From the IMG/VR virus record IMGVR_UViG_3300027129_000004, positions 24,107 to 88,106 of that record: a stretch of DNA of 64,000 bases, one strand, 5' to 3'. Position numbers and translations under genes: made by a program. The notes beneath the pieces were generated by a model, which was not told the DNA's origin, ran no database searches, and worked only from the letters and a program-made list of their open reading frames with translations. This document shows, piece after piece, positions 3,076 to 27,574 of the stretch (positions within the stretch are counted from its first letter, which is position 1; every line of letters begins with the position of its first letter). The DNA comes from a virus. Taxonomy: Duplodnaviria; Caudoviricetes.

Positions 3076-3610
3076 TATAATCTACTACAAAAATGGTGAG
3101 GAAACATTTCGTATTTCTCCTTCAACTGTTGGAACCAAATGCCCTGAAACTAAACTTGAAATCAAAATGATTGAACAAAAATTCACACTTGAACTCACAC
3201 TTGACGAACTTCACATGCTTGATAAGTATGTTGAATATTGTGAAGAAACAAAAGAGTTTTTTGAAAAACTTAAGAATGCTTATCCTAAACCAAAATCACC
3301 AATAGAAGAAGCATATAAGGACTGGTGTGGTGAGTATCCATTAGGTTCTCCAAGTGAAGACGCAAGGTGGGGTGCTTTTTTAGCAGGTTATCGAGTAACA
3401 CAACCAAAAGCAGTTCCAGTTGATGACCCTCCCGAATATGATGAAATTGAACACGATATTAGTGAAAATGTAGAAAATAAAACAATCCGTCAGGTGATAG
3501 ACCGATGGTGGATGGATACATTCACATCTAAAAATATGTGGTCTGTTAATGAATGTATTGATGACCTTGCTGACCAAATTCAATTTTGGATTTTGAGGAA
3601 TAAGAAATGA
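3068..3610 (+). CDS. hypothetical protein, mosaic family member
   Basis: 180 aa; shares modules with the 3607, 6347 and 8055 ORFs. Confidence 0.75.
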   Translation: MSDIIYYKNGEETFRISPSTVGTKCPETKLEIKMIEQKFTLELTLDELHMLDKYVEYCEETKEFFEKLKNAYPKPKSPIEEAYKDWCGEYPLGSPSEDARWGAFLAGYRVTQPKAVPVDDPPEYDEIEHDISENVENKTIRQVIDRWWMDTFTSKNMWSVNECIDDLADQIQFWILRNKK

Positions 3611-4422
3611 CTAACCCAATTGAAGAACTAAAAGAAAAAATTGCTACGATGCAACATAACCTCAAAGTATTGGAGCAACTTGAAGCAAGCACAACAGATG
3701 TAGAAAAGGCATACAGGGATGCCTACGGACATTATCCAGAAACAAGTAGTTTTGCTGTAAGTGATTGGGATGTTATAAGTTGGGAAGCATTCCAGAAGGG
3801 TTATGAGGCAGCACAACCAAAAGAAGTTTCAGTAGAAGAACAAACAAAACCGATGGAGGAAGTTGTGGATAGGTTGGAGAACAAATGGAATTCTGCAGCA
3901 GAGAATTCTGCAGCAGAGAATTCTGCTTATTATATTACTGATGAAGTAGTTGATAGGTTGATAAAACAACAACAAGCACAAAAACTCTACAATAGATTGT
4001 ATGATGAACCAGAGCATTATGATGAAGTGGAGTGGGATGAGAAGGATAATCCAAAACCTATGAATGAGGTTCTGGATAGGTTGGAGAATAAGTGGAATTC
4101 TGCGACAGAGAATTCTGCTTCTTATATTACTGATGAAGTTGTGAATAGAATGTTGAAGAAGTGGGAGGAAAATCCACCAGAGTTCTTGAAGTTTGAGTTG
4201 GGGGAAACCCTAGAAACCCGAATTTATAAGTGGTGGACTACTTGCTATAGCAAACACTGGACTATTGATGAGTGTACTGCAGATTTACTGGATATTGTAG
4301 AATTATTTCTTCCACGAGAACAATCGGCAGAGGGGTCTCAAAATATCAATACCGAAGTTGCTGTAGAAGCACATAATGAACTTTTGCAGAAAATCAAATC
4401 AAAATTGAGGAATAAGAAATGA
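3607..4422 (+). CDS. hypothetical protein with internal repeats, mosaic family member
   Basis: 271 aa; KPM.EV.DRLENKWNSA.ENSA.YITDEVV twice; 15-bp tandem GAATTCTGCAGCAGA. Confidence 0.8.
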   Translation: MTNPIEELKEKIATMQHNLKVLEQLEASTTDVEKAYRDAYGHYPETSSFAVSDWDVISWEAFQKGYEAAQPKEVSVEEQTKPMEEVVDRLENKWNSAAENSAAENSAYYITDEVVDRLIKQQQAQKLYNRLYDEPEHYDEVEWDEKDNPKPMNEVLDRLENKWNSATENSASYITDEVVNRMLKKWEENPPEFLKFELGETLETRIYKWWTTCYSKHWTIDECTADLLDIVELFLPREQSAEGSQNINTEVAVEAHNELLQKIKSKLRNKK

Positions 4423-4619
4423 AACTCCACGAACGACTTACGGAATGGTATTATACTCACGATGCCGTTCAATCTGGTGATGTAATCGCAAATGAGATTG
4501 TGAATGTTGTGAAAGAATGGTTGAAAAATTACCATAAAGAAGACAACAACAAATACGATTTTGACTATTTCAGTGGATGGGCAGATTGTATTGATATTTT
4601 AGAGAGAGATTTGAGATGA
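4419..4619 (+). CDS. hypothetical protein
   Basis: 66 aa, coupled. Confidence 0.7.
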   Translation: MKLHERLTEWYYTHDAVQSGDVIANEIVNVVKEWLKNYHKEDNNKYDFDYFSGWADCIDILERDLR

Positions 4620-4843
4620 GATACAATCCAGCAGATTGGGATACTTATACTCAAAAACAAAGAAAAGAGTGGCATTACAAACCATATGAAGAACAACGAG
4701 AGATTATAAATCAATCATATCTCTCAATTATTACTGATGAGAATGGAAATCTTGATGCTTTGAAAATCCTTGAGATTATTATGGATTTACAAGACCGAGT
4801 AGAAGACCTTGAAACAGAATGTGTGAGGAAGGATTATTTCTAA
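4616..4843 (+). CDS. hypothetical protein
   Basis: 75 aa, coupled. Confidence 0.7.
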   Translation: MRYNPADWDTYTQKQRKEWHYKPYEEQREIINQSYLSIITDENGNLDALKILEIIMDLQDRVEDLETECVRKDYF

Positions 4844-4992
4844 TGACCGAACAATACGGGAATCTTCCTGATGGTTTCTTTCTTTCTGAAAAGGGGATTG
4901 AAGACTTGAGAAACTCTAAAAAAGAATTGACGACTTATGGTAGAGAGAAACTGAGAGAACTTATTGAAAAGCAGAAGAAAGAGGACACCTGA
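4843..4992 (+). CDS. hypothetical protein (49 aa), duplicated at 7418
   Basis: MTEQYGNLPDGFFLSEKGIEDLRNSKKELTTYGREKLRELIEKQKKEDT; 147/150 nt identical to 7418-7567. Confidence 0.75.
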   Translation: MTEQYGNLPDGFFLSEKGIEDLRNSKKELTTYGREKLRELIEKQKKEDT

Positions 4993-5301
4993 CGAACGTA
5001 TTAAAGGCAAACTGTAATGTACAAAATTCTTTTACTGGAAGGACCTGATGGTAATAGGTATAAGGGAACTCTCTTACATACAGGCATTTGGTCCGTAGAA
5101 AAATTTGCAAATTTGAGATCATCTGTCTGGTGGGACACCGAAAAACAAGGTTATTGGGGGAGTAATATTTCTTACACTGACGAAGAGTTAAAAGAAACAT
5201 TCGTTATTTTAGCAGAAAGTGAAACCTATATTCATCCGTCCAACTTCATTATTCACGATGGACGATGAAAAACTCTTGGATCTGTAGGACACCTGACGAA
5301 C
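4982..5301 (+). mobile_element. 304-bp single-gene insertion flanked by a 16-bp direct repeat
   Basis: AGGACACCTGACGAAC at 4982-4997 and 5286-5301; uninterrupted equivalent site at 7556-7579. Confidence 0.6.
5017..5268 (+). CDS. hypothetical protein (insertion cargo)
   Basis: 83 aa ORF between the direct repeats. Confidence 0.7.
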   Translation: MYKILLLEGPDGNRYKGTLLHTGIWSVEKFANLRSSVWWDTEKQGYWGSNISYTDEELKETFVILAESETYIHPSNFIIHDGR

Positions 5302-5343
5302 TGGCACAAGATCCCTCCACAGGGGCACCAGATGCCCTATAAT
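5285..5343 (+). promoter_or_regulatory. early promoter element
   Basis: TAGGACACC-TGACGA-ACTGGCACA, 29 nt, TATAAT. Confidence 0.8.
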
Positions 5344-5366
5344 AGTCTCATACACACAGAACCCTG

Positions 5367-5756
5367 ATGAAACCCTTTGATTACTACTCCAAACCCCAAA
5401 CTGTTTATCCCAACAAAAAGGATTACATCACCTCTTATGTTTATGATAAGGGTGTAGTTCTTTGGTCTGGTCCTACTTGGGAAAAGGATAAAGCAGAACT
5501 AAAAGAAGAATATCCTAATGCTCTCATTCAAGAAATTTTGGATGAGGACGCATACAAGGCACAACGCAAAAAATATACTGATGAAGAGTTTAATCTTCAA
5601 GTACAGTTCCAGAATGATTTGTTTGAAGATTATGGTGTGACTGATAATCCTAAAAGGTTCATGTGTTTTGACCTTGCTTGGGAACAGGGACACGCTTATG
5701 GTCTTGAAGAAGTGTATAATAAGTTTGATGACTTGGTGGAACTTATTAAGGATTGA
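5367..5756 (+). CDS. hypothetical protein
   Basis: 129 aa; C-terminal LAWEQGHAYGLEEV motif of a phage hypothetical family. Confidence 0.8.
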   Translation: MKPFDYYSKPQTVYPNKKDYITSYVYDKGVVLWSGPTWEKDKAELKEEYPNALIQEILDEDAYKAQRKKYTDEEFNLQVQFQNDLFEDYGVTDNPKRFMCFDLAWEQGHAYGLEEVYNKFDDLVELIKD

Positions 5757-5813
5757 GGACACTTGATGAACTGGCACAGGGGATTCTCTGGGTGCCTCTG
5801 GATGGTGTATAAT
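5755..5813 (+). promoter_or_regulatory. early promoter element
   Basis: GAGGACACT-TGATGA-ACTGGCACA, 29 nt, TATAAT. Confidence 0.8.
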
Positions 5814-5901
5814 ACTCCTATACACCCAGAGAATGTGAGTATTCTCATATCACACAAGAACTCATCACCCAAACCGCAGAGGACATTCTATCTTTTTACA
5901 A

Positions 5902-6081
5902 ATGACTGAACGCAACTTCAAGAAAGAACTCTCTCACTCTGTTTATTATGATATGGAGGATGGGAATGATACTGAAACCATTTGTTATCCTTCCTTGATT
6001 TCTATTATCACAGAGTTGTGTGATAGAATTGAACAACTTGAAAAATCTCAACATACACACTCGGAAATGAACAATGACTGA
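5902..6081 (+). CDS. hypothetical protein (59 aa), paralog of 6873
   Basis: MTERNFKKELSHSVYYDMEDGNDTETI vs MTERNLKQQLQYSYYEDMEDGRTTETI. Confidence 0.75.
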   Translation: MTERNFKKELSHSVYYDMEDGNDTETICYPSLISIITELCDRIEQLEKSQHTHSEMNND

Positions 6082-6241
6082 AAACAAACTGAAAATTGAA
6101 CAAGAAGTGATTGATGACCTCTATTTTCAAATGAATGTCAATAAACCAAAAAAAAGATCCCAACAATTACTTGAAGAAGGTCTAATCAAAAAGGCATATT
6201 TGATGGGGTATTATGAATGTGAATGTAAGAACCAAAAATGA
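6074..6241 (+). CDS. hypothetical protein (55 aa)
   Basis: hand-translated MTENKLKIEQEVIDDLYFQ..., overlaps neighbours. Confidence 0.6.
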   Translation: MTENKLKIEQEVIDDLYFQMNVNKPKKRSQQLLEEGLIKKAYLMGYYECECKNQK

Positions 6242-6346
6242 AACACTCACCATACACACTTGGAATAATCACGGGATTTTGTATTGCTGCTCTGTATTTT
6301 ATGGCACCTGGTATCTTTGAGAGTTTCAAACAACCAGAAGCAAGTT

Positions 6347-6685
6347 ATGAAACAAATAGAAGAGTATCCTTATAAAAAATATACACCAGATGAAGTTGCT
6401 GATGAAGTAGAGTGGGATGAGAAAGATAATCCTGCTTCAATTGGATTCAAAATTGCCGATGAAGTTGTGAATAGGTTGGTGAAAAAACACCAAGCACAAA
6501 AACTTTTTAATAGATTGGTAGATGAACTTGGTTTCGAGTTTGATACTTGTAATGATATTGTAGATTTGGTGGAAGACTGGATTTTAGAAGAACAAAGTGC
6601 TTCTGGTTCGCAGAATGTGAATACTGAATTGCTTGTTGAGGGATTTAATGACGCAATACGCAAAATGAAAGAGATGTTGCGATGA
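6347..6685 (+). CDS. hypothetical protein, mosaic family member
   Basis: shares DEVEWDEKDNP, QAQKL.NRL and EQSA.GSQN.NTE with 3607-4422. Confidence 0.75.
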   Translation: MKQIEEYPYKKYTPDEVADEVEWDEKDNPASIGFKIADEVVNRLVKKHQAQKLFNRLVDELGFEFDTCNDIVDLVEDWILEEQSASGSQNVNTELLVEGFNDAIRKMKEMLR

Positions 6686-6691
6686 CTGAAA

Positions 6692-6880
6692 ATGACTAAA
6701 AAGAAAGACACTTGGAAAAAGTGGAACATCTATACCTCAATCCATCTCTTTGAGTATTGTGTGTATAGTTGGAGAAATCATATGTGGAACCATCTTGATG
6801 GATATCCAAATGAAGAGAGAATGAGAAACCTATTCTGGTATTATTTGAACTACGGACACGCAAACACTTATTATGACTGA
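6692..6880 (+). CDS. hypothetical protein
   Basis: 62 aa, Trp/Tyr rich. Confidence 0.65.
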   Translation: MTKKKDTWKKWNIYTSIHLFEYCVYSWRNHMWNHLDGYPNEERMRNLFWYYLNYGHANTYYD

Positions 6881-7055
6881 ACGAAACCTAAAACAACAAC
6901 TCCAGTATTCCTACTATGAGGATATGGAGGATGGTAGAACAACTGAAACGATTGATTATGATGCCTTGATTGAAATTATTGATGATTTGTATGATAAAAT
7001 TGAAACACTTCAAAGGGATAATGAATTCCTGAAATCTTATGCTTGGGAACAATGA
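6873..7055 (+). CDS. hypothetical protein
   Basis: 60 aa, paralog of 5902. Confidence 0.75.
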   Translation: MTERNLKQQLQYSYYEDMEDGRTTETIDYDALIEIIDDLYDKIETLQRDNEFLKSYAWEQ

Positions 7056-7246
7056 CTGACGAACAAATCTGCGAAATGGTTAATAGGCACCGATACCTTA
7101 TGAGGTGTGAGATTAAACACGCACTTGATAAATTTTGTGCTGAAAATGGGAACCAAGACTTCAGCACTGCCAATCGTTCAGAAGCATTCAACGATACAAA
7201 ATGGATTGAATTTGCTAAATGGTTCAAGGAGATAAGAGATGAATGA
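7052..7246 (+). CDS. hypothetical protein
   Basis: coupled ATGA start within ORF 7043-7246. Confidence 0.65.
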   Translation: MTDEQICEMVNRHRYLMRCEIKHALDKFCAENGNQDFSTANRSEAFNDTKWIEFAKWFKEIRDE

Positions 7247-7421
7247 AGAACTTTATATTCTTTATCTCAAACTTCGTGGTGGATATTGGAGAGTTAAGGA
7301 GGCATTTTCTATTTGGGGATTTTTGATGACCCATAGTTTGGAAAGATTAAATGAAAGATGTCACGGTTTAAATTGTTTTGATGAGTTTTATGCTACAATT
7401 AATGGTGGTTGGAAAAAATGA
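7239..7421 (+). CDS. hypothetical protein
   Basis: 60 aa, AAGGAG RBS. Confidence 0.65.
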   Translation: MNEELYILYLKLRGGYWRVKEAFSIWGFLMTHSLERLNERCHGLNCFDEFYATINGGWKK

Positions 7422-7567
7422 CCGAACAATACGGGAATCTTCCTGATGGTTTCTTTCTTTATGAAAGGGAGATTGAAGACTTGAGAAACTCTAAAAAAGA
7501 ATTGACGACTTATGGTAGAGAGAAACTGAGAGAACTTATTGAAAAGCAGAAGAAAGAGGACACCTGA
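7418..7567 (+). CDS. hypothetical protein (49 aa), duplicate of 4843
   Basis: differs from the 4843 copy by S15Y, K17R, G18E; stop inside the palindrome. Confidence 0.75.
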   Translation: MTEQYGNLPDGFFLYEREIEDLRNSKKELTTYGREKLRELIEKQKKEDT

Positions 7568-7614
7568 CCAACTGGCACAAGACCCCTCCACAGGGGCACC
7601 AGATGCCTTATAAT
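7556..7614 (+). promoter_or_regulatory. early promoter element
   Basis: GAGGACACC-TGACCA-ACTGGCACA, 29 nt, TATAAT. Confidence 0.8.
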
Positions 7615-7646
7615 AGTCTCATACACATAACAAATACTCTATTTTT

Positions 7647-7919
7647 ATGAACAAAGAACCACTCCAAGCAAAAGTATCCGACGAAGATTACCAAAAACTT
7701 CTTGATTACTTCAAAACTCAACTTGTTCAATCGGTTGTACCCAACAACCCTTTGAGTAAGGTTCAACAAACACGAACCATCTATTCCAAAATCAAAGAGA
7801 AAAATGTAGTAGAAGGTCTGGTTTCTTTTGATGGTGAAGAACCTGCTTGGGTTCCGATTGAAACCATCAACGGGATTTATTCCTTTATCAACAAAACCTT
7901 TGACAATTTTAACATTTGA
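7647..7919 (+). CDS. hypothetical protein
   Basis: 90 aa, directly after the promoter. Confidence 0.7.
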   Translation: MNKEPLQAKVSDEDYQKLLDYFKTQLVQSVVPNNPLSKVQQTRTIYSKIKEKNVVEGLVSFDGEEPAWVPIETINGIYSFINKTFDNFNI

Positions 7920-7928
7920 TAGTATAAT
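7900..7928 (+). promoter_or_regulatory. sigma70-type promoter for tRNA-Cys
   Basis: TTGACA-17 nt-TATAAT perfect consensus. Confidence 0.8.
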
Positions 7929-7939
7929 CGTCTGGTGCT

Positions 7940-8016
7940 GTGTCTGTGGACCGAGTGGTGAAGGCAACCGTCTGCAAAACGGTTAATCAACGTGGGTTCA
8001 AATCCCACCAGACACT
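7940..8016 (+). tRNA. tRNA-Cys (GCA)
   Basis: acceptor GTGTCTG/CAGACAC, anticodon arm ACCGT-CTGCAAA-ACGGT, T-arm GTGGG-TTCAAAT-CCCAC, U discriminator; no encoded CCA. Confidence 0.9.
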
Positions 8017-8054
8017 CTTATAAATTATGAGGCACTAAAGGAACTGAAATACAA

Positions 8055-8204
8055 ATGAGTGAAGACCTAATCTTCTATACAAATGGTAAAGAAACGTCCC
8101 GTATTCCTTCTCCAACTCTTGAAACTCTTACTCTTGGAACCAAAACACCAGAAACTAAACTTGAAATAGAAAAAACAATGGATAAAGAAGATACTGATAA
8201 ATAA
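8055..8204 (+). CDS. hypothetical protein (49 aa), possibly truncated homolog of the 3068 N-terminus
   Basis: IFYTNGKETSRIPS...GTKTPETKLEI vs IYYKNGEETFRISP...GTKCPETKLEI. Confidence 0.55.
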   Translation: MSEDLIFYTNGKETSRIPSPTLETLTLGTKTPETKLEIEKTMDKEDTDK

Positions 8205-8263
8205 TAGTGCTTATGTGTGTCGCAACCATAGCAGAGATTGGGTGCTTTCGGGCACCTTTTCTT
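8197..8263 (+). ncRNA. candidate late small RNA antisense to the endonuclease leader (with its promoter and terminator)
   Basis: ATAAATA, hairpin whose loop is complementary to 8276-8295, then GGTGCT-TTCG-GGCACC-TTTTCTT. Confidence 0.5.
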
Positions 8264-8264
8264 G

Positions 8265-8272
8265 TATAAATA
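8265..8272 (+). promoter_or_regulatory. T4-type late promoter
   Basis: TATAAATA 28 nt before the ATG. Confidence 0.75.
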
Positions 8273-8300: not shown

Positions 8301-9089
8301 ATGGAACTCAAAGAGTATCACTATGTTTATTATTCCTATGAGGAATATGGTAGAGGATATTTTGGTAGTAGAACTTGTAAATGTTTACCAGAAGATGATG
8401 TAAGATATTTTGGTTCTTACAGGGATAAGACATTCAAACCAACTCAAAAGATAATCTTGAAAAGTGATTATGCTACAAGAGAAGAGGCATATGATGATGA
8501 GATTACTTTACAAGAATATTATAAAGTAGTTGAAAATCCACATTTTTCTAATAGGGCATATCAAACATCTACAAAATTTTCTTATATAAGACCAACAGAA
8601 CAAGCAAGAGAAATTGGAAAAAAATCTGGATTAAAAGTAAAAGAACTTGGATTGGGATTTCACGCACTCACAAAAGAACAATTAAGTGAAAATTCTAAAA
8701 AAATGGTAGAAAAACATAGAAAAACTGGAACTGGTTTATTTACTTTAACTAATGAACAAAGAAGTAAAGGTGGATTAAAAAATAAAGAACAAGGTTCGGG
8801 AATTTTTTCTTTAACGGAAGAAGAAAAACAAAAAATAAGAAGTGAAGCAGGAAAAATAGGAGGGAAAAGGGCAGCAGAACTGAAAGTAGGTGCTCACGGA
8901 AGAACAAAAGAACAGATGAGTGAGGATGGTAAAAAAGTATCAAAATCAGTAAGAATACAAGCAGGAAAAACAACAAGTTCTCAAAGATGGATGTGTCTTG
9001 AAACAGGACATATTTCTACACCAGGAGGACTTTCAAAATATCAAAAACATAAAGGAATAGATACTTCTAGAAGAATAAGAGTATCATAA
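8301..9089 (+). CDS. GIY-YIG (Seg-like) homing endonuclease
   Basis: HYVY...GYFGSR, conserved E and N of the GIY-YIG domain; basic C-terminal repeats (G.G...LT.EQ). Confidence 0.75.
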   Translation: MELKEYHYVYYSYEEYGRGYFGSRTCKCLPEDDVRYFGSYRDKTFKPTQKIILKSDYATREEAYDDEITLQEYYKVVENPHFSNRAYQTSTKFSYIRPTEQAREIGKKSGLKVKELGLGFHALTKEQLSENSKKMVEKHRKTGTGLFTLTNEQRSKGGLKNKEQGSGIFSLTEEEKQKIRSEAGKIGGKRAAELKVGAHGRTKEQMSEDGKKVSKSVRIQAGKTTSSQRWMCLETGHISTPGGLSKYQKHKGIDTSRRIRVS

Positions 9090-9148
9090 AGGACACTTGA
9101 CGAACTGGAACAAGGTGCCTTTACGGGGCACCTTTTTTGTTGTATAAT
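9089..9148 (+). promoter_or_regulatory. early promoter element overlapping a terminator-like hairpin
   Basis: AAGGACACT-TGACGA-ACTGGAACA, AAGGTGCC..GGCACCTT-TTTT, TATAAT. Confidence 0.7.
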
Positions 9149-9169
9149 ATGAGAAATCAAAGGAACATT

Positions 9170-9475
9170 ATGGAAGATAGATTTTATCCAGATGAAATGT
9201 TTGAAGTTGCTGAACGAAGGGAGAAGAGTAATCGTGTTCTCCAAAGGTATAATGACTACTACAATATGGAGTGTGAATCATTACCAACTGGAGGACCAAT
9301 TAGTATGATGCATATGCAAGCAATTGCATTACAATCTGCAATTGATGCTCTGCGTTGCGAAAACCTGAATCGTGAGTATAATGAAATCGCAATCTCTGAT
9401 ATTGAGGATTTGATTGAACGATTGTATCAACAGAGTAATGAGTATCTTGAACGAGTGAGGAAACTGAAAAAATGA
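9170..9475 (+). CDS. hypothetical protein
   Basis: ATG with AAGGA RBS within ORF 9137-9475. Confidence 0.7.
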   Translation: MEDRFYPDEMFEVAERREKSNRVLQRYNDYYNMECESLPTGGPISMMHMQAIALQSAIDALRCENLNREYNEIAISDIEDLIERLYQQSNEYLERVRKLKK

Positions 9476-10749: not shown

Positions 10750-10956
10750 TACTTCGTAATCAATCAACACCATGTTAGTCCTTGATTCTATTGGTTTCTA
10801 CGATAAGTTTCAAAATTATAATCTAATCCTAGATTTTTCTGGTCGTTGGGTAGAACATTATAATTATATGATATCTCCTTTTAATGAAAAATGGATAAAT
10901 AAAACCTATCAAGATGAGATAAGGCAAAATCGGTTTTACGATGTTTGATTGTGCCT

Positions 10957-11272: not shown

Positions 11273-11503
11273 ATGTCTGCTAAACTGATTGCTCTTGCTT
11301 CCGAAATCGTTGATACCAACCCTGCTGCTGCTCAACTGATTGTTAGTCTGACTAAAGCAGAAACTGGTGCTGAACTCATCGAAGCACTTGATAACTATGA
11401 TTCCACCGTGCTTGAGAACTATTCTGAACCTGTGGATTCTGAAGATGAAGATGAAGGTGAAGTGACTCTCACCGATGCAGATGGTATTGTAACTTCTGTT
11501 TGA
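11273..11503 (+). CDS. hypothetical acidic protein
   Basis: 76 aa. Confidence 0.7.
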   Translation: MSAKLIALASEIVDTNPAAAQLIVSLTKAETGAELIEALDNYDSTVLENYSEPVDSEDEDEGEVTLTDADGIVTSV

Positions 11504-11793: not shown

Positions 11794-11878
11794 TTCTTAC
11801 GGGCATCAAAGGTCCAAACTTTGAATAAGACCCACACCCTCTATGCCTCTTAACAATGCACAAACCAGAGGGTCTCTT

Positions 11879-11951
11879 GGGCATATGGTGAAGTGGATTA
11901 TCACACGGCTCTTCTAAAGCCTTATCCCTGGTTCGAATCCAGGTATGCCTG
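11879..11951 (+). tRNA. tRNA-Arg (TCT)
   Basis: acceptor GGGCATA/TATGCCT, D-stem GTGA/TCAC, loop CTTCTAA, T-arm CCTGG-TTCGAAT-CCAGG. Confidence 0.9.
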
Positions 11952-11956
11952 TTTAA

Positions 11957-12064: not shown

Positions 12065-12640
12065 ATGAAAGGTACTATTTATTGTATCCACTGTATTTCC
12101 ACTGGAGAGAAATATATTGGACAAACCAGAAGAAGTATACAAGATAGACTAAGATATCACAAATACGCATCTGCAAAAAGTTCCAGAGCAAAATTATACA
12201 TACAAGCAAATAAAACTGGATGGGATGATTTCATAATTGGGATTGTTGAGCAGTGTGAGGTCAATCAATTAAATGGAAAAGAATGTTTTTATATTGAAAC
12301 ATTTAATACTTTAGAAAAAGGACTGAATAGTTCTCCAGGTGGAGGAAAATTCCCAGTTATGAAAGGAAAATTGCACCCTTTGTTTGGAAAAGGACATAAA
12401 AAGGAAACAAAATTAAAAATAAGCAAAAATCATCACAATGTCTTAGGAAAAAACAATCCAAGGTCAAATTATTATGAAGTTGAATTTTTAAATGGAAAAA
12501 AAGAAACTGTTCATTGTTTGACGGAGTGGGGAAGAAACAATGGATACAAAAAACAAAATTTATTTAATTTAGCTTGCAATCTCCAGAAATCACCTCACAA
12601 AGATATTTTAAAAATTACTAAAATTCAAAATGAAAGTTAA
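12065..12640 (+). CDS. GIY-YIG homing endonuclease with NUMOD3-like motif
   Basis: TIY...YIGQT..R...H, E, GLN; HPLFGKGHKKETKLKIS. Confidence 0.85.
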   Translation: MKGTIYCIHCISTGEKYIGQTRRSIQDRLRYHKYASAKSSRAKLYIQANKTGWDDFIIGIVEQCEVNQLNGKECFYIETFNTLEKGLNSSPGGGKFPVMKGKLHPLFGKGHKKETKLKISKNHHNVLGKNNPRSNYYEVEFLNGKKETVHCLTEWGRNNGYKKQNLFNLACNLQKSPHKDILKITKIQNES

Positions 12641-13451: not shown

Positions 13452-13928
13452 ATGGACTACTTAAAAATTGAACCAAATCAAACTATTCTTGTTCTAAACG
13501 CATCCTATGAACCAATTAACTTTACTAATTGGAAAAGAGCAATCGTGCTGCTTATGAAGAACAAAGCACAAGCACTTGGTAAGAGAGTCATTCGACTGGT
13601 CAATTACATTAAGTTGCCCTACGAGAAACTAATGCAAAATAGACCATCACGAGCAATGATTTATAAACGTGATGGTCATAAGTGTCAGTATTGTGGTTCG
13701 ACTAAAGAACTAACTATTGACCACATCATCCCACGTTCTCGTGGTGGTGAAGATACTTGGGAAAATCTTACTGTTGCTTGTATGCCTTGCAACTCTAAAA
13801 AAAGTGATAAACTTCTTGAAGAAACTAATTTGTCTCTTCGCACTATTCCAAAAAAACCACTGAATAAGATGCTATTTGCTCTCGATAGAGCAAATGACCC
13901 AGAGTGGAATGAATACTCTTATGCCTAA
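13452..13928 (+). CDS. HNH endonuclease (McrA/HNH_5-like)
   Basis: LVLNASYEP, RD...CQYC, TIDHIIPRSRGG..WENL..AC..CN. Confidence 0.9.
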   Translation: MDYLKIEPNQTILVLNASYEPINFTNWKRAIVLLMKNKAQALGKRVIRLVNYIKLPYEKLMQNRPSRAMIYKRDGHKCQYCGSTKELTIDHIIPRSRGGEDTWENLTVACMPCNSKKSDKLLEETNLSLRTIPKKPLNKMLFALDRANDPEWNEYSYA

Positions 13929-26492: not shown

Positions 26493-26671
26493 TTATAATA
26501 GACAGTTATTTTATGTTGTTTGTTATTCTTATACCTAACCGTTGCCCCCCCCGGTATATAATTTTAATGGGTCCTTCAAGGCTACACCGAACCGAAAACG
26601 AGAGAGTAATTGTCTTTCAAATAAAAAAATTTTTCCAAAAAATTTTTCCAAAAAAGTTAAAACATAAAATT

Positions 26672-27574
26672 ATGAATTACCCAGAAGGAACTATTAAGAC
26701 AAACACCCAAGGAAACAAATACATCAGAAAAGATGGAAAATGGGTATATATGAAAAAACCAAAAGAAGAAAGGAAAATATCAAAGGAAAATCCCAAAAGA
26801 GTTGTTTATAATTATCCCCCCATAAGATTGTCCGAAAATATGAGAGAAACTCAATATCCTGGGTATTATATCACTGAGGACGGGAGAGCATATCGCAAAC
26901 CTGGAAAATATGATAGGAATGGAAAATACGGAGAAATTAATGAAAATGGGTTAATATATCTAAAACCTGCGTTCAGGGGACACTCAAAATATCCAGAACA
27001 TCAATATGAATGCATAAACATCTCAATGTATGATGAAACTGGAAAGTATAAACAAATTAAAAAATCAATTCATCAATTAGTTGCGGAAGCATTTATTCCT
27101 AATCCTGAAAGACATAGTGAGATATTACACATAGATGGAAATAATAGGAATAATCATTATACAAATTTAAAATGGGGAACACATAAAGAAAACATGGAGA
27201 TGGTTGGTTTACCAGAAGGGAGTATTAGGAGAGCAAAAGGAAAGTCTAGTGATTATATCAAAAAAGATGGTGAGTGGATTTTAATTCCAAAAAATACACC
27301 TCCATGGAATAGGGGATTGAAAGGAGTATCATGGAATACATTACCTGATGGAACTGTTACAACAAGAAAAGTAAATGGAAAACCTGGAACTTTCATAAAA
27401 CAAAATGGTAAATGGGTTTACCAGACAAATAATCCTAAGTCTAGAGGAAAGAGTTTTAAAGAAAATAAACCAAAAAGAAAACCACTACCCGATGGAACTA
27501 TTAGAACTCGTGCTGATGGTACTACATGGGTAAAGGAAAATGGTAAATGGGTTTATCAAAAAACAAAAAAATGA
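26672..27574 (+). CDS. HNH homing endonuclease (NUMOD4/HNH_3-like) with four P(E/D)GT...K.GKWVY repeats
   Basis: IHQLVAEAFIPNP....ILHIDGN..NNH.TNLKW.T.KEN; first ATG after the A-tracts. Confidence 0.8.
   Translation: MNYPEGTIKTNTQGNKYIRKDGKWVYMKKPKEERKISKENPKRVVYNYPPIRLSENMRETQYPGYYITEDGRAYRKPGKYDRNGKYGEINENGLIYLKPAFRGHSKYPEHQYECINISMYDETGKYKQIKKSIHQLVAEAFIPNPERHSEILHIDGNNRNNHYTNLKWGTHKENMEMVGLPEGSIRRAKGKSSDYIKKDGEWILIPKNTPPWNRGLKGVSWNTLPDGTVTTRKVNGKPGTFIKQNGKWVYQTNNPKSRGKSFKENKPKRKPLPDGTIRTRADGTTWVKENGKWVYQKTKK

Follow-up and report, generated by a model that had tools for sequence, protein, structure and literature searches.

An interrupted promoter cassette beside a small gene in the early-gene region of an uncultured riverine T4-like cyanomyovirus

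How does a small gene come to stand between a reading frame and the promoter that elsewhere follows it directly? This question is raised by a window of 64,000 nucleotides (nt), which comprises bases 24107-88106 of the 88,106-bp IMG/VR virus record IMGVR_UViG_3300027129_000004. An open reading frame (ORF) of 49 codons, ORF49, occurs twice in this window. Together with a 71-nt promoter element it forms one contiguous stretch at 7418-7627, while at 4843-5356 the same pair is split by 288 bp that include another small gene, ORF83. An earlier note on this DNA regarded the two copies as the empty and the filled version of one site, into which a one-gene cassette had entered at a palindrome with a duplication of 16 bp. 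In our best reading, the junction arose when recombination took place at the conserved 5' box of a promoter cassette that resembles the promoter-early stem-loop (PeSL) cassettes of T4-type phages; the route of this recombination and its consequence for expression are what we infer. Roughly an even chance is given to the capture of a promoterless 304-bp unit with ORF83 via homology in the box, i.e., to gene shuffling of the PeSL type.

Judging from the PHROG matches in the record (baseplate wedge, tail sheath stabilizer, small terminase, helicase and several homing endonucleases) and from Synechococcus phage S-PM2 as the sole nucleotide match among cultured phages, the record comes from an uncultured riverine T4-like cyanomyovirus, of which the region treated here is the hyperplastic early-gene region. 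The completeness of the record is about 41%, and the stretch is present in 20 riverine metagenome runs.

The split and the contiguous copy

The repeat that contains the two copies of ORF49 (4842-4997 and 7417-7572; features in Table 1) differs at 4 of 156 positions, of which three are located within ORF49 (4886, 4892 and 4895) and one, 4994, within the 16-mer AGGACACCTGACGAAC. This 16-mer is found exactly at 4982-4997 and again at 5286-5301, 304 bp apart, and the direct repeat comprises exactly 16 bp, because the adjoining bases differ on both sides (G/T before, G/T after). Between the two 16-mers there are 19 nt, then ORF83 and finally 17 nt; terminal inverted repeats were not found in the insert, and no inverted repeat was reported in 4998-5301. 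At the 4982 site the cassette breaks off after the first 16 nt of its box, and after 288 bp the box starts again and the cassette is complete. The elements at 5286-5356 and 7557-7627 differ at 3 of 71 positions (5298, 5312 and 5337). Most of the earlier description could be confirmed, namely the coordinates of the 49-codon ORF and the three differences between its copies, the identical 16-mers 304 bp apart with an 83-aa ORF between them, and the nearly identical downstream promoter, for which the quoted string matches with one variable position. The palindrome of the contiguous copy had been called intact, but it is weak: in the variant at 5286 and 7557 the palindrome has an inner stem of only 4-5 bp (5312-5325, 7583-7596), the box pairs imperfectly with the stretch before the -10, and the folds of the two copies do not exceed shuffles in stability (z +0.73 and -0.43, respectively).

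An interruption of the copy at 4843 is supported by the contiguity of ORF49 and cassette in copy 2 and in relatives. ORF49 is encoded at 12 IMG/VR loci, and at eight of them (L009-L013, L016-L018) it is followed by a full cassette, the final codons (...EDT) and the stop being located inside the box; the cassette variant of L011 is the one seen in the window. The 16-mer is the conserved 5' box of this cassette, and at up to 3 mismatches it has 7 matches in the window against 0.23 expected from shuffles. The proposed 16-bp duplication can therefore be kept as an exact repeat but not as a target-site duplication, because the box is conserved throughout the cassette family.

The junctions are unlikely to be created by the assembly. 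Both are crossed by Logan contigs in 4 of 4 river runs with 0 differences (X1 and X20 span 4964-5900, X10 4964-5355 and X12 4964-5344), and the depth of the junction contigs is similar to that of the unique left flank (33.4/31.5, 17.5/18.4, 22.5/22.4 and 9.0/10.1), although the four runs may be the record's own source and are not independent. Repeats in this region do break de Bruijn assemblers, and the Logan unitigs break at 4842-4993. Nevertheless, an artefact arising from the 211-nt repeat appears very improbable, because the contigs of all four runs extend from 4964 through both junctions at left-flank depth and because ORF83 is an intact conserved gene; the misassembly that the earlier note had named as fatal to its proposal was not encountered in these contigs. 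Copy 2 was assembled as a separate contig in these runs. The contig specific for copy 2 was shallower than that specific for copy 1 in 3 of 4 runs (22.5/31.5, 9.8/18.4, 18/22.4 and 9.8/10.1), which may reflect strain heterogeneity, contig depths being crude.

Table 1. Features around the split and the contiguous copy of ORF49 and its cassette (window coordinates)
Feature	Position	Strand	Remarks
ORF75	4616-4843	+	upstream of ORF49 copy 1; stop overlaps ORF49 ATG (TAATG)
ORF49 copy 1	4843-4992	+	49 aa; final codons and TGA stop within the 5' box of the cassette
Left 16-mer AGGACACCTGACGAAC	4982-4997	+	box-only half cassette, without hairpin or -10 downstream
Junction stub, 19 nt	4998-5016	+	TAA (5015-5017) overlaps ORF83 ATG
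ORF83	5017-5268	+	conserved small phage protein, without promoter of its own here
Spacer, 17 nt	5269-5285	+	from ORF83 stop to second 16-mer; found only in this genome among the loci compared
Complete cassette	5286-5366	+	box 5286-5307, weak palindrome 5312-5325, TCCACA 5316-5321, TATAAT 5338-5343
ORF129	5367-5756	+	phrog_10980; homolog in the S-PM2 'ORFanage', 83% nt identity
Next cassette copy	5756-5826	+	65% identical to 5286-5356; better hairpin
ORF60	7239-7421	+	upstream of ORF49 copy 2; junction also in L013
ORF49 copy 2	7418-7567	+	runs into uninterrupted cassette
Uninterrupted cassette	7557-7646	+	box 7557-7578, palindrome 7583-7596, -10 7609-7614, leader to ORF90
ORF90	7647-7919	+	phrog_15922; gene served by the copy-2 cassette

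The cassette family and ORF83

In the cassette, a 22-nt 5' box (GGACACYTGANGAACTGGCAC) is followed by a GC hairpin that varies between copies, by the -10 (TATAAT) and by a conserved leader to the ATG; the box usually abuts or overlaps the stop codon of the upstream gene. The cassette is predicted to act as a sigma-70-like early promoter directly before a small gene. Fifteen full cassettes were identified in the record, all on the + strand at record positions 2043-41847 (in the window up to 17741), while 20 shuffles gave 0. They are confined to the first 42 kb of the 88-kb record, with none in the structural (baseplate/tail) module, and the -10 is present in 15 of the 17 box matches of the record. 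From relatives and this genome, 103 distinct full cassettes were obtained; the variant ACAGGGGCACCAGATGCCYTATAAT occurs at 35 IMG/VR loci in 31 distinct gene contexts, with up to four or five copies per contig. Upstream of the window, at 10863-10908 of the record (G000), a cassette carries a 23-nt box variant in tandem duplication (GGACACTTTCCAAACCGTCACAG twice).

The cassettes vary mainly in what follows the box. The copy at 9090-9148 shows a terminator-like hairpin (9112-9134) with a T-run, and in relatives TTGAAA is located by eye in the hairpin loop, 17 nt from TATAAT; type-B copies read TTGAAA-17-TATAAT. In some copies the hairpin is thus predicted to be a terminator with the -35 in its loop. 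The hairpin arms are GGTGCC/GGCACC in one copy and GGGCAC/GTGCCC in others, and such differing yet paired arms suggest selection for pairing. The variant at 5286 and 7557 retains only TCCACA-16-TATAAT (TCCACA/TATAAT 10 of 12); in the copy at 5286-5366, TCCACA represents a -35-like motif and TATAAT the -10, and the leader extends to the ATG of ORF129. S-PM2 contains three full cassettes within 5.4 kb of its ORFanage, at 8575, 9855 and 11349 (positions 456, 1736 and 3230 of L065). The one at 11349 coincides with a stem-loop at 11369-11391 that is listed in the part of Puxty et al. (PMC4503421) drawn on here. Comparison of their anatomy indicates that the cassettes are the cyanophage counterpart of PeSL cassettes.

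The earlier note took the split copy as direct evidence of an insertion hotspot, which is overstated for a single event. When boxes with at most 1 mismatch were counted in ~323 kb of related DNA, 77 of 80 distinct boxes belonged to full cassettes. The remaining three are the window's 4982 site, a truncation at a locus end (L027) and the box at L062:1685. The latter region (1685-1720) was considered as a second filled site and rejected as a hairpin deletion: it retains a T-run, a degenerate -10 and a leader-like stretch, by eye the sequence downstream of the box can be aligned to the corresponding parts of a type-B cassette (T-run, -10, leader), and the flanking boxes differ at 3 of 16 positions. 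This box follows a homolog of the window ORF 8301-9089. Among 41 + 37 IMG/VR matches to a box followed by non-element sequence there was no further half-site; these 78 matches comprise one full variant (L134) and otherwise unrelated phages. Hence, the half-site of the window is singular.

ORF83 has 11 homologs at E <= 1e-15 with 52-98% identity and many invariant columns, found only in other metagenome contigs and in the phages B3 and B23. Single-protein and alignment searches gave no relatives in IMG/VR, and the gene is absent from every sampled close relative of this genome. As far as sequence comparison tells, ORF83 is shown to be foreign to this genome. Its homologs in four metagenome contigs and phage B3 have five different neighbourhoods; in 5 of 5 the upstream ORF, a different, translationally coupled gene each time, ends 0-7 nt before the ATG, and in 0 of 5 the element is found beside the homolog. 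The earlier note had asked whether this ORF always sits beside the element in different neighbourhoods; the neighbourhoods do differ, but none of the five places the homolog beside the element. The cassette family is carried elsewhere in two loci with ORF83 homologs (L022, L025), therefore donors exist. No Pfam or PHROG match was obtained for ORF83, and its AlphaFold2 (AF2) model, with a predicted local distance difference test (pLDDT) score of 77.9, had no Foldseek match at E <= 0.001 in PDB or BFVD.

Read in the frame of the codon at 4982, the 19-nt stub ends in ...DERIKGKL*, its TAA overlapping the ATG of ORF83, and it probably represents what is left of a former upstream gene's 3' end. A collapsed -10/leader of a cassette (GTAT...AAAGG...ATG) was considered as an alternative, which needs two deletions. 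Fuzzy DNA and peptide searches of the related loci and the 88-kb record retrieved the stub and the 17-nt spacer only from the window itself, a degenerate back-translated pattern of the stub had 0 matches in IMG/VR, and a nucleotide search of cultured phages with 4960-5320 gave no match.

Several other features of the region are worth recording. Homing-endonuclease-type genes are located at 12065-12640, 13452-13928 and 26513-27574 (one GIY-YIG and two HNH by PHROG), a tRNA-Cys gene at 7940-8017 is preceded by a perfect TTGACA-17-TATAAT promoter (7900-7928), and a tRNA-Arg gene is found at 11878-11952. The ORFs 5902-6081 and 6873-7055 form a paralogous pair of ~60 aa with 70% nt identity, both phrog_16080. 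The start ATGACTGA(A/C), overlapping the stop of the preceding gene, is common to many small genes here. The 262-aa ORF 8301-9089 was also considered as a GIY-YIG homing endonuclease, because it has by eye a GIY-YIG-like N-terminus and NUMOD-like repeats; Pfam and PDB sequence searches gave nothing significant, and the assignment was rejected. It is preceded (8240-8271) by a hairpin and TATAAATA, the T4 late-promoter motif, and its homologs adjoin cassettes in L014, L061, L062 and L067.

Routes to the junction

If the box guided the event, ORF83 would have been captured by the general recombination machinery of the phage with the conserved box as short homology, either from a small circle or by crossovers with a co-infecting relative, while an earlier illegitimate join would have created the box|stub junction. 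ORF83 would then be read through from the ORF49 transcript, and ORF129 would keep its cassette promoter. The earlier note had offered two options, of which homology in the element plus an illegitimate join fits better; it also matches the PeSL model as laid out in the parts of two reports drawn on here (PMC2839356, PMC4122927). The capture via the box is supported by other short-homology junctions at the end of ORF49. In L014 and L015 this end is joined within ~11 shared nt at the box start to the 3' end of a homolog of the window ORF 8055-8204 and the next gene. In L019 (3001-3400) a deletion fused codons 1-41 of ORF49 in frame to the N-terminal region of the usual downstream gene, a homolog of window 9150-9462, and the cassette is deleted. 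The join in L014 and L015 lies at ~2440-2455, to which window position 8184-8204 corresponds.

Several points weigh against this capture. If two full cassettes recombined into a mini-circle, two full cassettes should result, not 16 nt of one; an illegitimate join, the source of which was not found, is still required at the left junction; and a general recombination system would have to work here with a homology of 16 bp, which is very short. The site is the only one of its kind. The empty arrangement ORF49-cassette-ORF129 was met at 0 of 12 ORF49 loci and 0 of 19 ORF129 loci. Neither a 304-bp skip nor a back-joint 5301->4998 was present in the contigs of the four runs, although rare variants are lost from contigs, and with them any rare empty alleles or circles. 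Since the cassette variant is not restricted to ORF49 and occurs in many contexts, the 96% identity of the two cassettes proves little. Moreover, the whole region is a mosaic of multiple events. As with PeSL units, genes differ between relatives at the cassettes: the gene after the ORF49 cassette varies, and homologs of ORF129 have differing upstream genes, with or without cassette. L020 has ORF49 without cassette. Upstream of the 14 ORF49 copies (12 in relatives, two in the window), six different neighbours are found, all of which meet the ATG by stop/start overlap in the absence of the element; therefore, shuffling is not confined to the cassette. The claim that a cassette entered the palindrome stands as far as a one-gene interruption relative to copy 2 and L011 is concerned, and the two 16-mers may derive from one box.

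Finally, both the junction and the duplication of ORF49 could result from one unequal crossover, without insertion of a 304-bp unit. An unequal or illegitimate crossover between related co-infecting genomes, or a deletion, with the 16-mers stemming from two separately derived cassettes, is a strong rival, though less probable than the capture. In this account, one arm of the L009 type (ORF75-ORF49-box) would have been joined to the 3' end of a gene preceding ORF83, and the second arm would already have had the order ORF83-cassette-ORF129...ORF60-ORF49-cassette. In this regard, the window contains two tandem ORF133-like...ORF49 modules (3607-4992, 6284-7567), while relatives have one, in the order ORF133-like, [ORF66], [ORF75], [ORF60], ORF49, cassette and window-9150 gene, where the bracketed ORFs are variably present. 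The left junction of copy 1 is shared with L009 and L010 (the ORF75-ORF49 junction also with L020) and that of copy 2 with L013. The 19-nt stub resembles a gene end, the cassette variant sits behind many genes, and L062 provides a cassette without hairpin that kept its box, the flanking boxes being 13/16 identical. On the other hand, the identity of the two 16-mers would be a coincidence. Exact AGGACACCTGACGAAC is found in 4 of 103 family members, the window's own included, and identical boxes make up 301 of 5253 random pairs (5.7%; 3 of 55 within this genome), therefore a direct relation between the two 16-mers is favoured by roughly 20:1 as judged from these frequencies. GACGAAC occurs in none of the 9 other ORF49-linked boxes. 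Furthermore, ORF271 and ORF133 share repeated segments of ~77-94% identity in patches, which are far more diverged than the ORF49 copies (98%), so that a single recent duplication needs extra gene conversion. The proposed parental arrangement was also unobserved.

A site-specific integrase or transposase is not likely as the agent. It might be assumed that cleavage or exchange takes place at a defined site, GAAC|TGGCAC, by an integron-like or nuclease-driven process, and that box-ended promoterless units are inserted there: the break coincides with the last base of the 16-mer, the inserted unit has a box of its own at its end, the box-only site of L062 breaks at the same position, and homing endonuclease genes are frequent nearby. 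This is nonetheless quite improbable. A search for integrases and resolvases (PF00589, PF00239) gave 0 matches in 88 kb of a record that is about 41% complete, with positive controls (PF00589 in 14 of 14 genomes), and the PHROG scan of the 26 ORFs of at least 110 aa found none either. There is no attC-like structure and no terminal inverted repeat, a foreign coding stub stands at the left end, and 0 of 5 ORF83 homolog loci adjoin the element; on these grounds the integron-style circle with attL/attR-like ends, the other option of the earlier note, is not supported. L062 is better read as a hairpin deletion, no further half-site was seen among the 41 + 37 matches, and the shared break position is partly an ascertainment effect, because the box search detected breaks only at or after position 15. 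An insertion of transposon type with a 16-bp target-site duplication would account for exact direct repeats around a discrete insert, but it is hardly credible, since the insert encodes only an 83-aa protein without Pfam or PHROG match, lacks terminal inverted repeats and is flanked by a motif conserved in the whole family, while ORF83 homologs elsewhere have no such flanks. It is also conceivable, though unlikely, that the 5' box is a dedicated exchange site, with box-ended, promoterless one-gene units like the 304-bp unit here excising as circles and re-entering any cassette by box x box exchange. If true, T4-like cyanophages would have an integrase-free, integron-like gene capture, with the recombination machinery or a homing-type nuclease as candidate enzyme.

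Known systems and significance

PeSL cassettes have been described for the T4-type phages RB49/phi1, T4/PST and KVP40/nt-1 (Arbiol et al. 2010, PMC2839356; Comeau et al. 2014, PMC4122927), where the model includes recombination between units, one-gene mini-circles and degraded '1/2 PeSLs' near indels. The parts of these reports drawn on here reveal clear likenesses to the cassettes of the window. In both systems, small composite units of promoter and stem-loop, the latter a predicted terminator in some of the cassettes here, are repeated between the small ORFs of hyperplastic regions and are tied to insertions, deletions and replacements between relatives, and the half units near indels find their counterpart in the half cassette at 4982. 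The circle that the earlier note had proposed corresponds to the excision and integration of one-gene mini-circles put forward for PeSLs. There are also differences. The host group here is a cyanomyovirus, a conserved 22-nt box stands 5' of the hairpin instead of the AT-rich stretch of PeSLs, the -35 is located in the hairpin loop instead of after the stem-loop, and the variant at 5286 and 7557 is without terminator. The insert is flanked by a 16-nt half and a full unit, whereas PeSL inserts have two full units, and a circle is here a candidate route.

For the ORFanage of S-PM2, Puxty et al. (2015, PMC4503421) suspected that its ORFs originate from freshwater phages. In the part of their report drawn on here, one early promoter and two stem-loops are listed, and PeSL-mediated acquisition was judged unlikely due to low density. 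The homolog of ORF129 and the cassettes of the same family connect this region with the window; however, three cassettes in 5.4 kb differ from the low PeSL density that was reported.

With integrons the locus shares a promoterless one-gene unit in the same orientation at a repeated site, bounded by a short repeat. It differs from them in that no integrase was found in the 88 kb and no attC-like imperfect palindrome exists, the 3' end being the 17-nt spacer and the box; in addition, a foreign gene stub stands at one end, and the repeat is part of a promoter cassette that is present at ~100 other intergenic sites. Short-homology recombination offers a further parallel, since the junctions lie at ~10-16 nt (4982-4997 in the window, ~11 nt in L014 and L015), but here the homology is a conserved regulatory box, which channels events to gene ends. 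Recombination between small direct repeats was reportedly treated by Albertini and colleagues in 1982, whom Comeau and colleagues cite on this point. For events without PeSL, such short-homology recombination has been invoked in the part of Comeau et al. (2014, PMC4122927) drawn on here. Collectively, the locus does not reveal a new kind of mobile system; it adds one clear example to the repeat-guided gene shuffling known from relatives of T4.

Most of the unknown and host-adaptive genes of cyanomyoviruses reside in their hyperplastic regions, and the movement of these genes is poorly documented. The locus provides a junction-level example within one genome, in which the cassette is intact at one copy and interrupted at the other, and cassettes of this family are dense in freshwater relatives and also occur in the ORFanage of S-PM2. 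The 304-bp unit with its flanking 16-bp repeats represents a concrete target for testing the mini-circle model.

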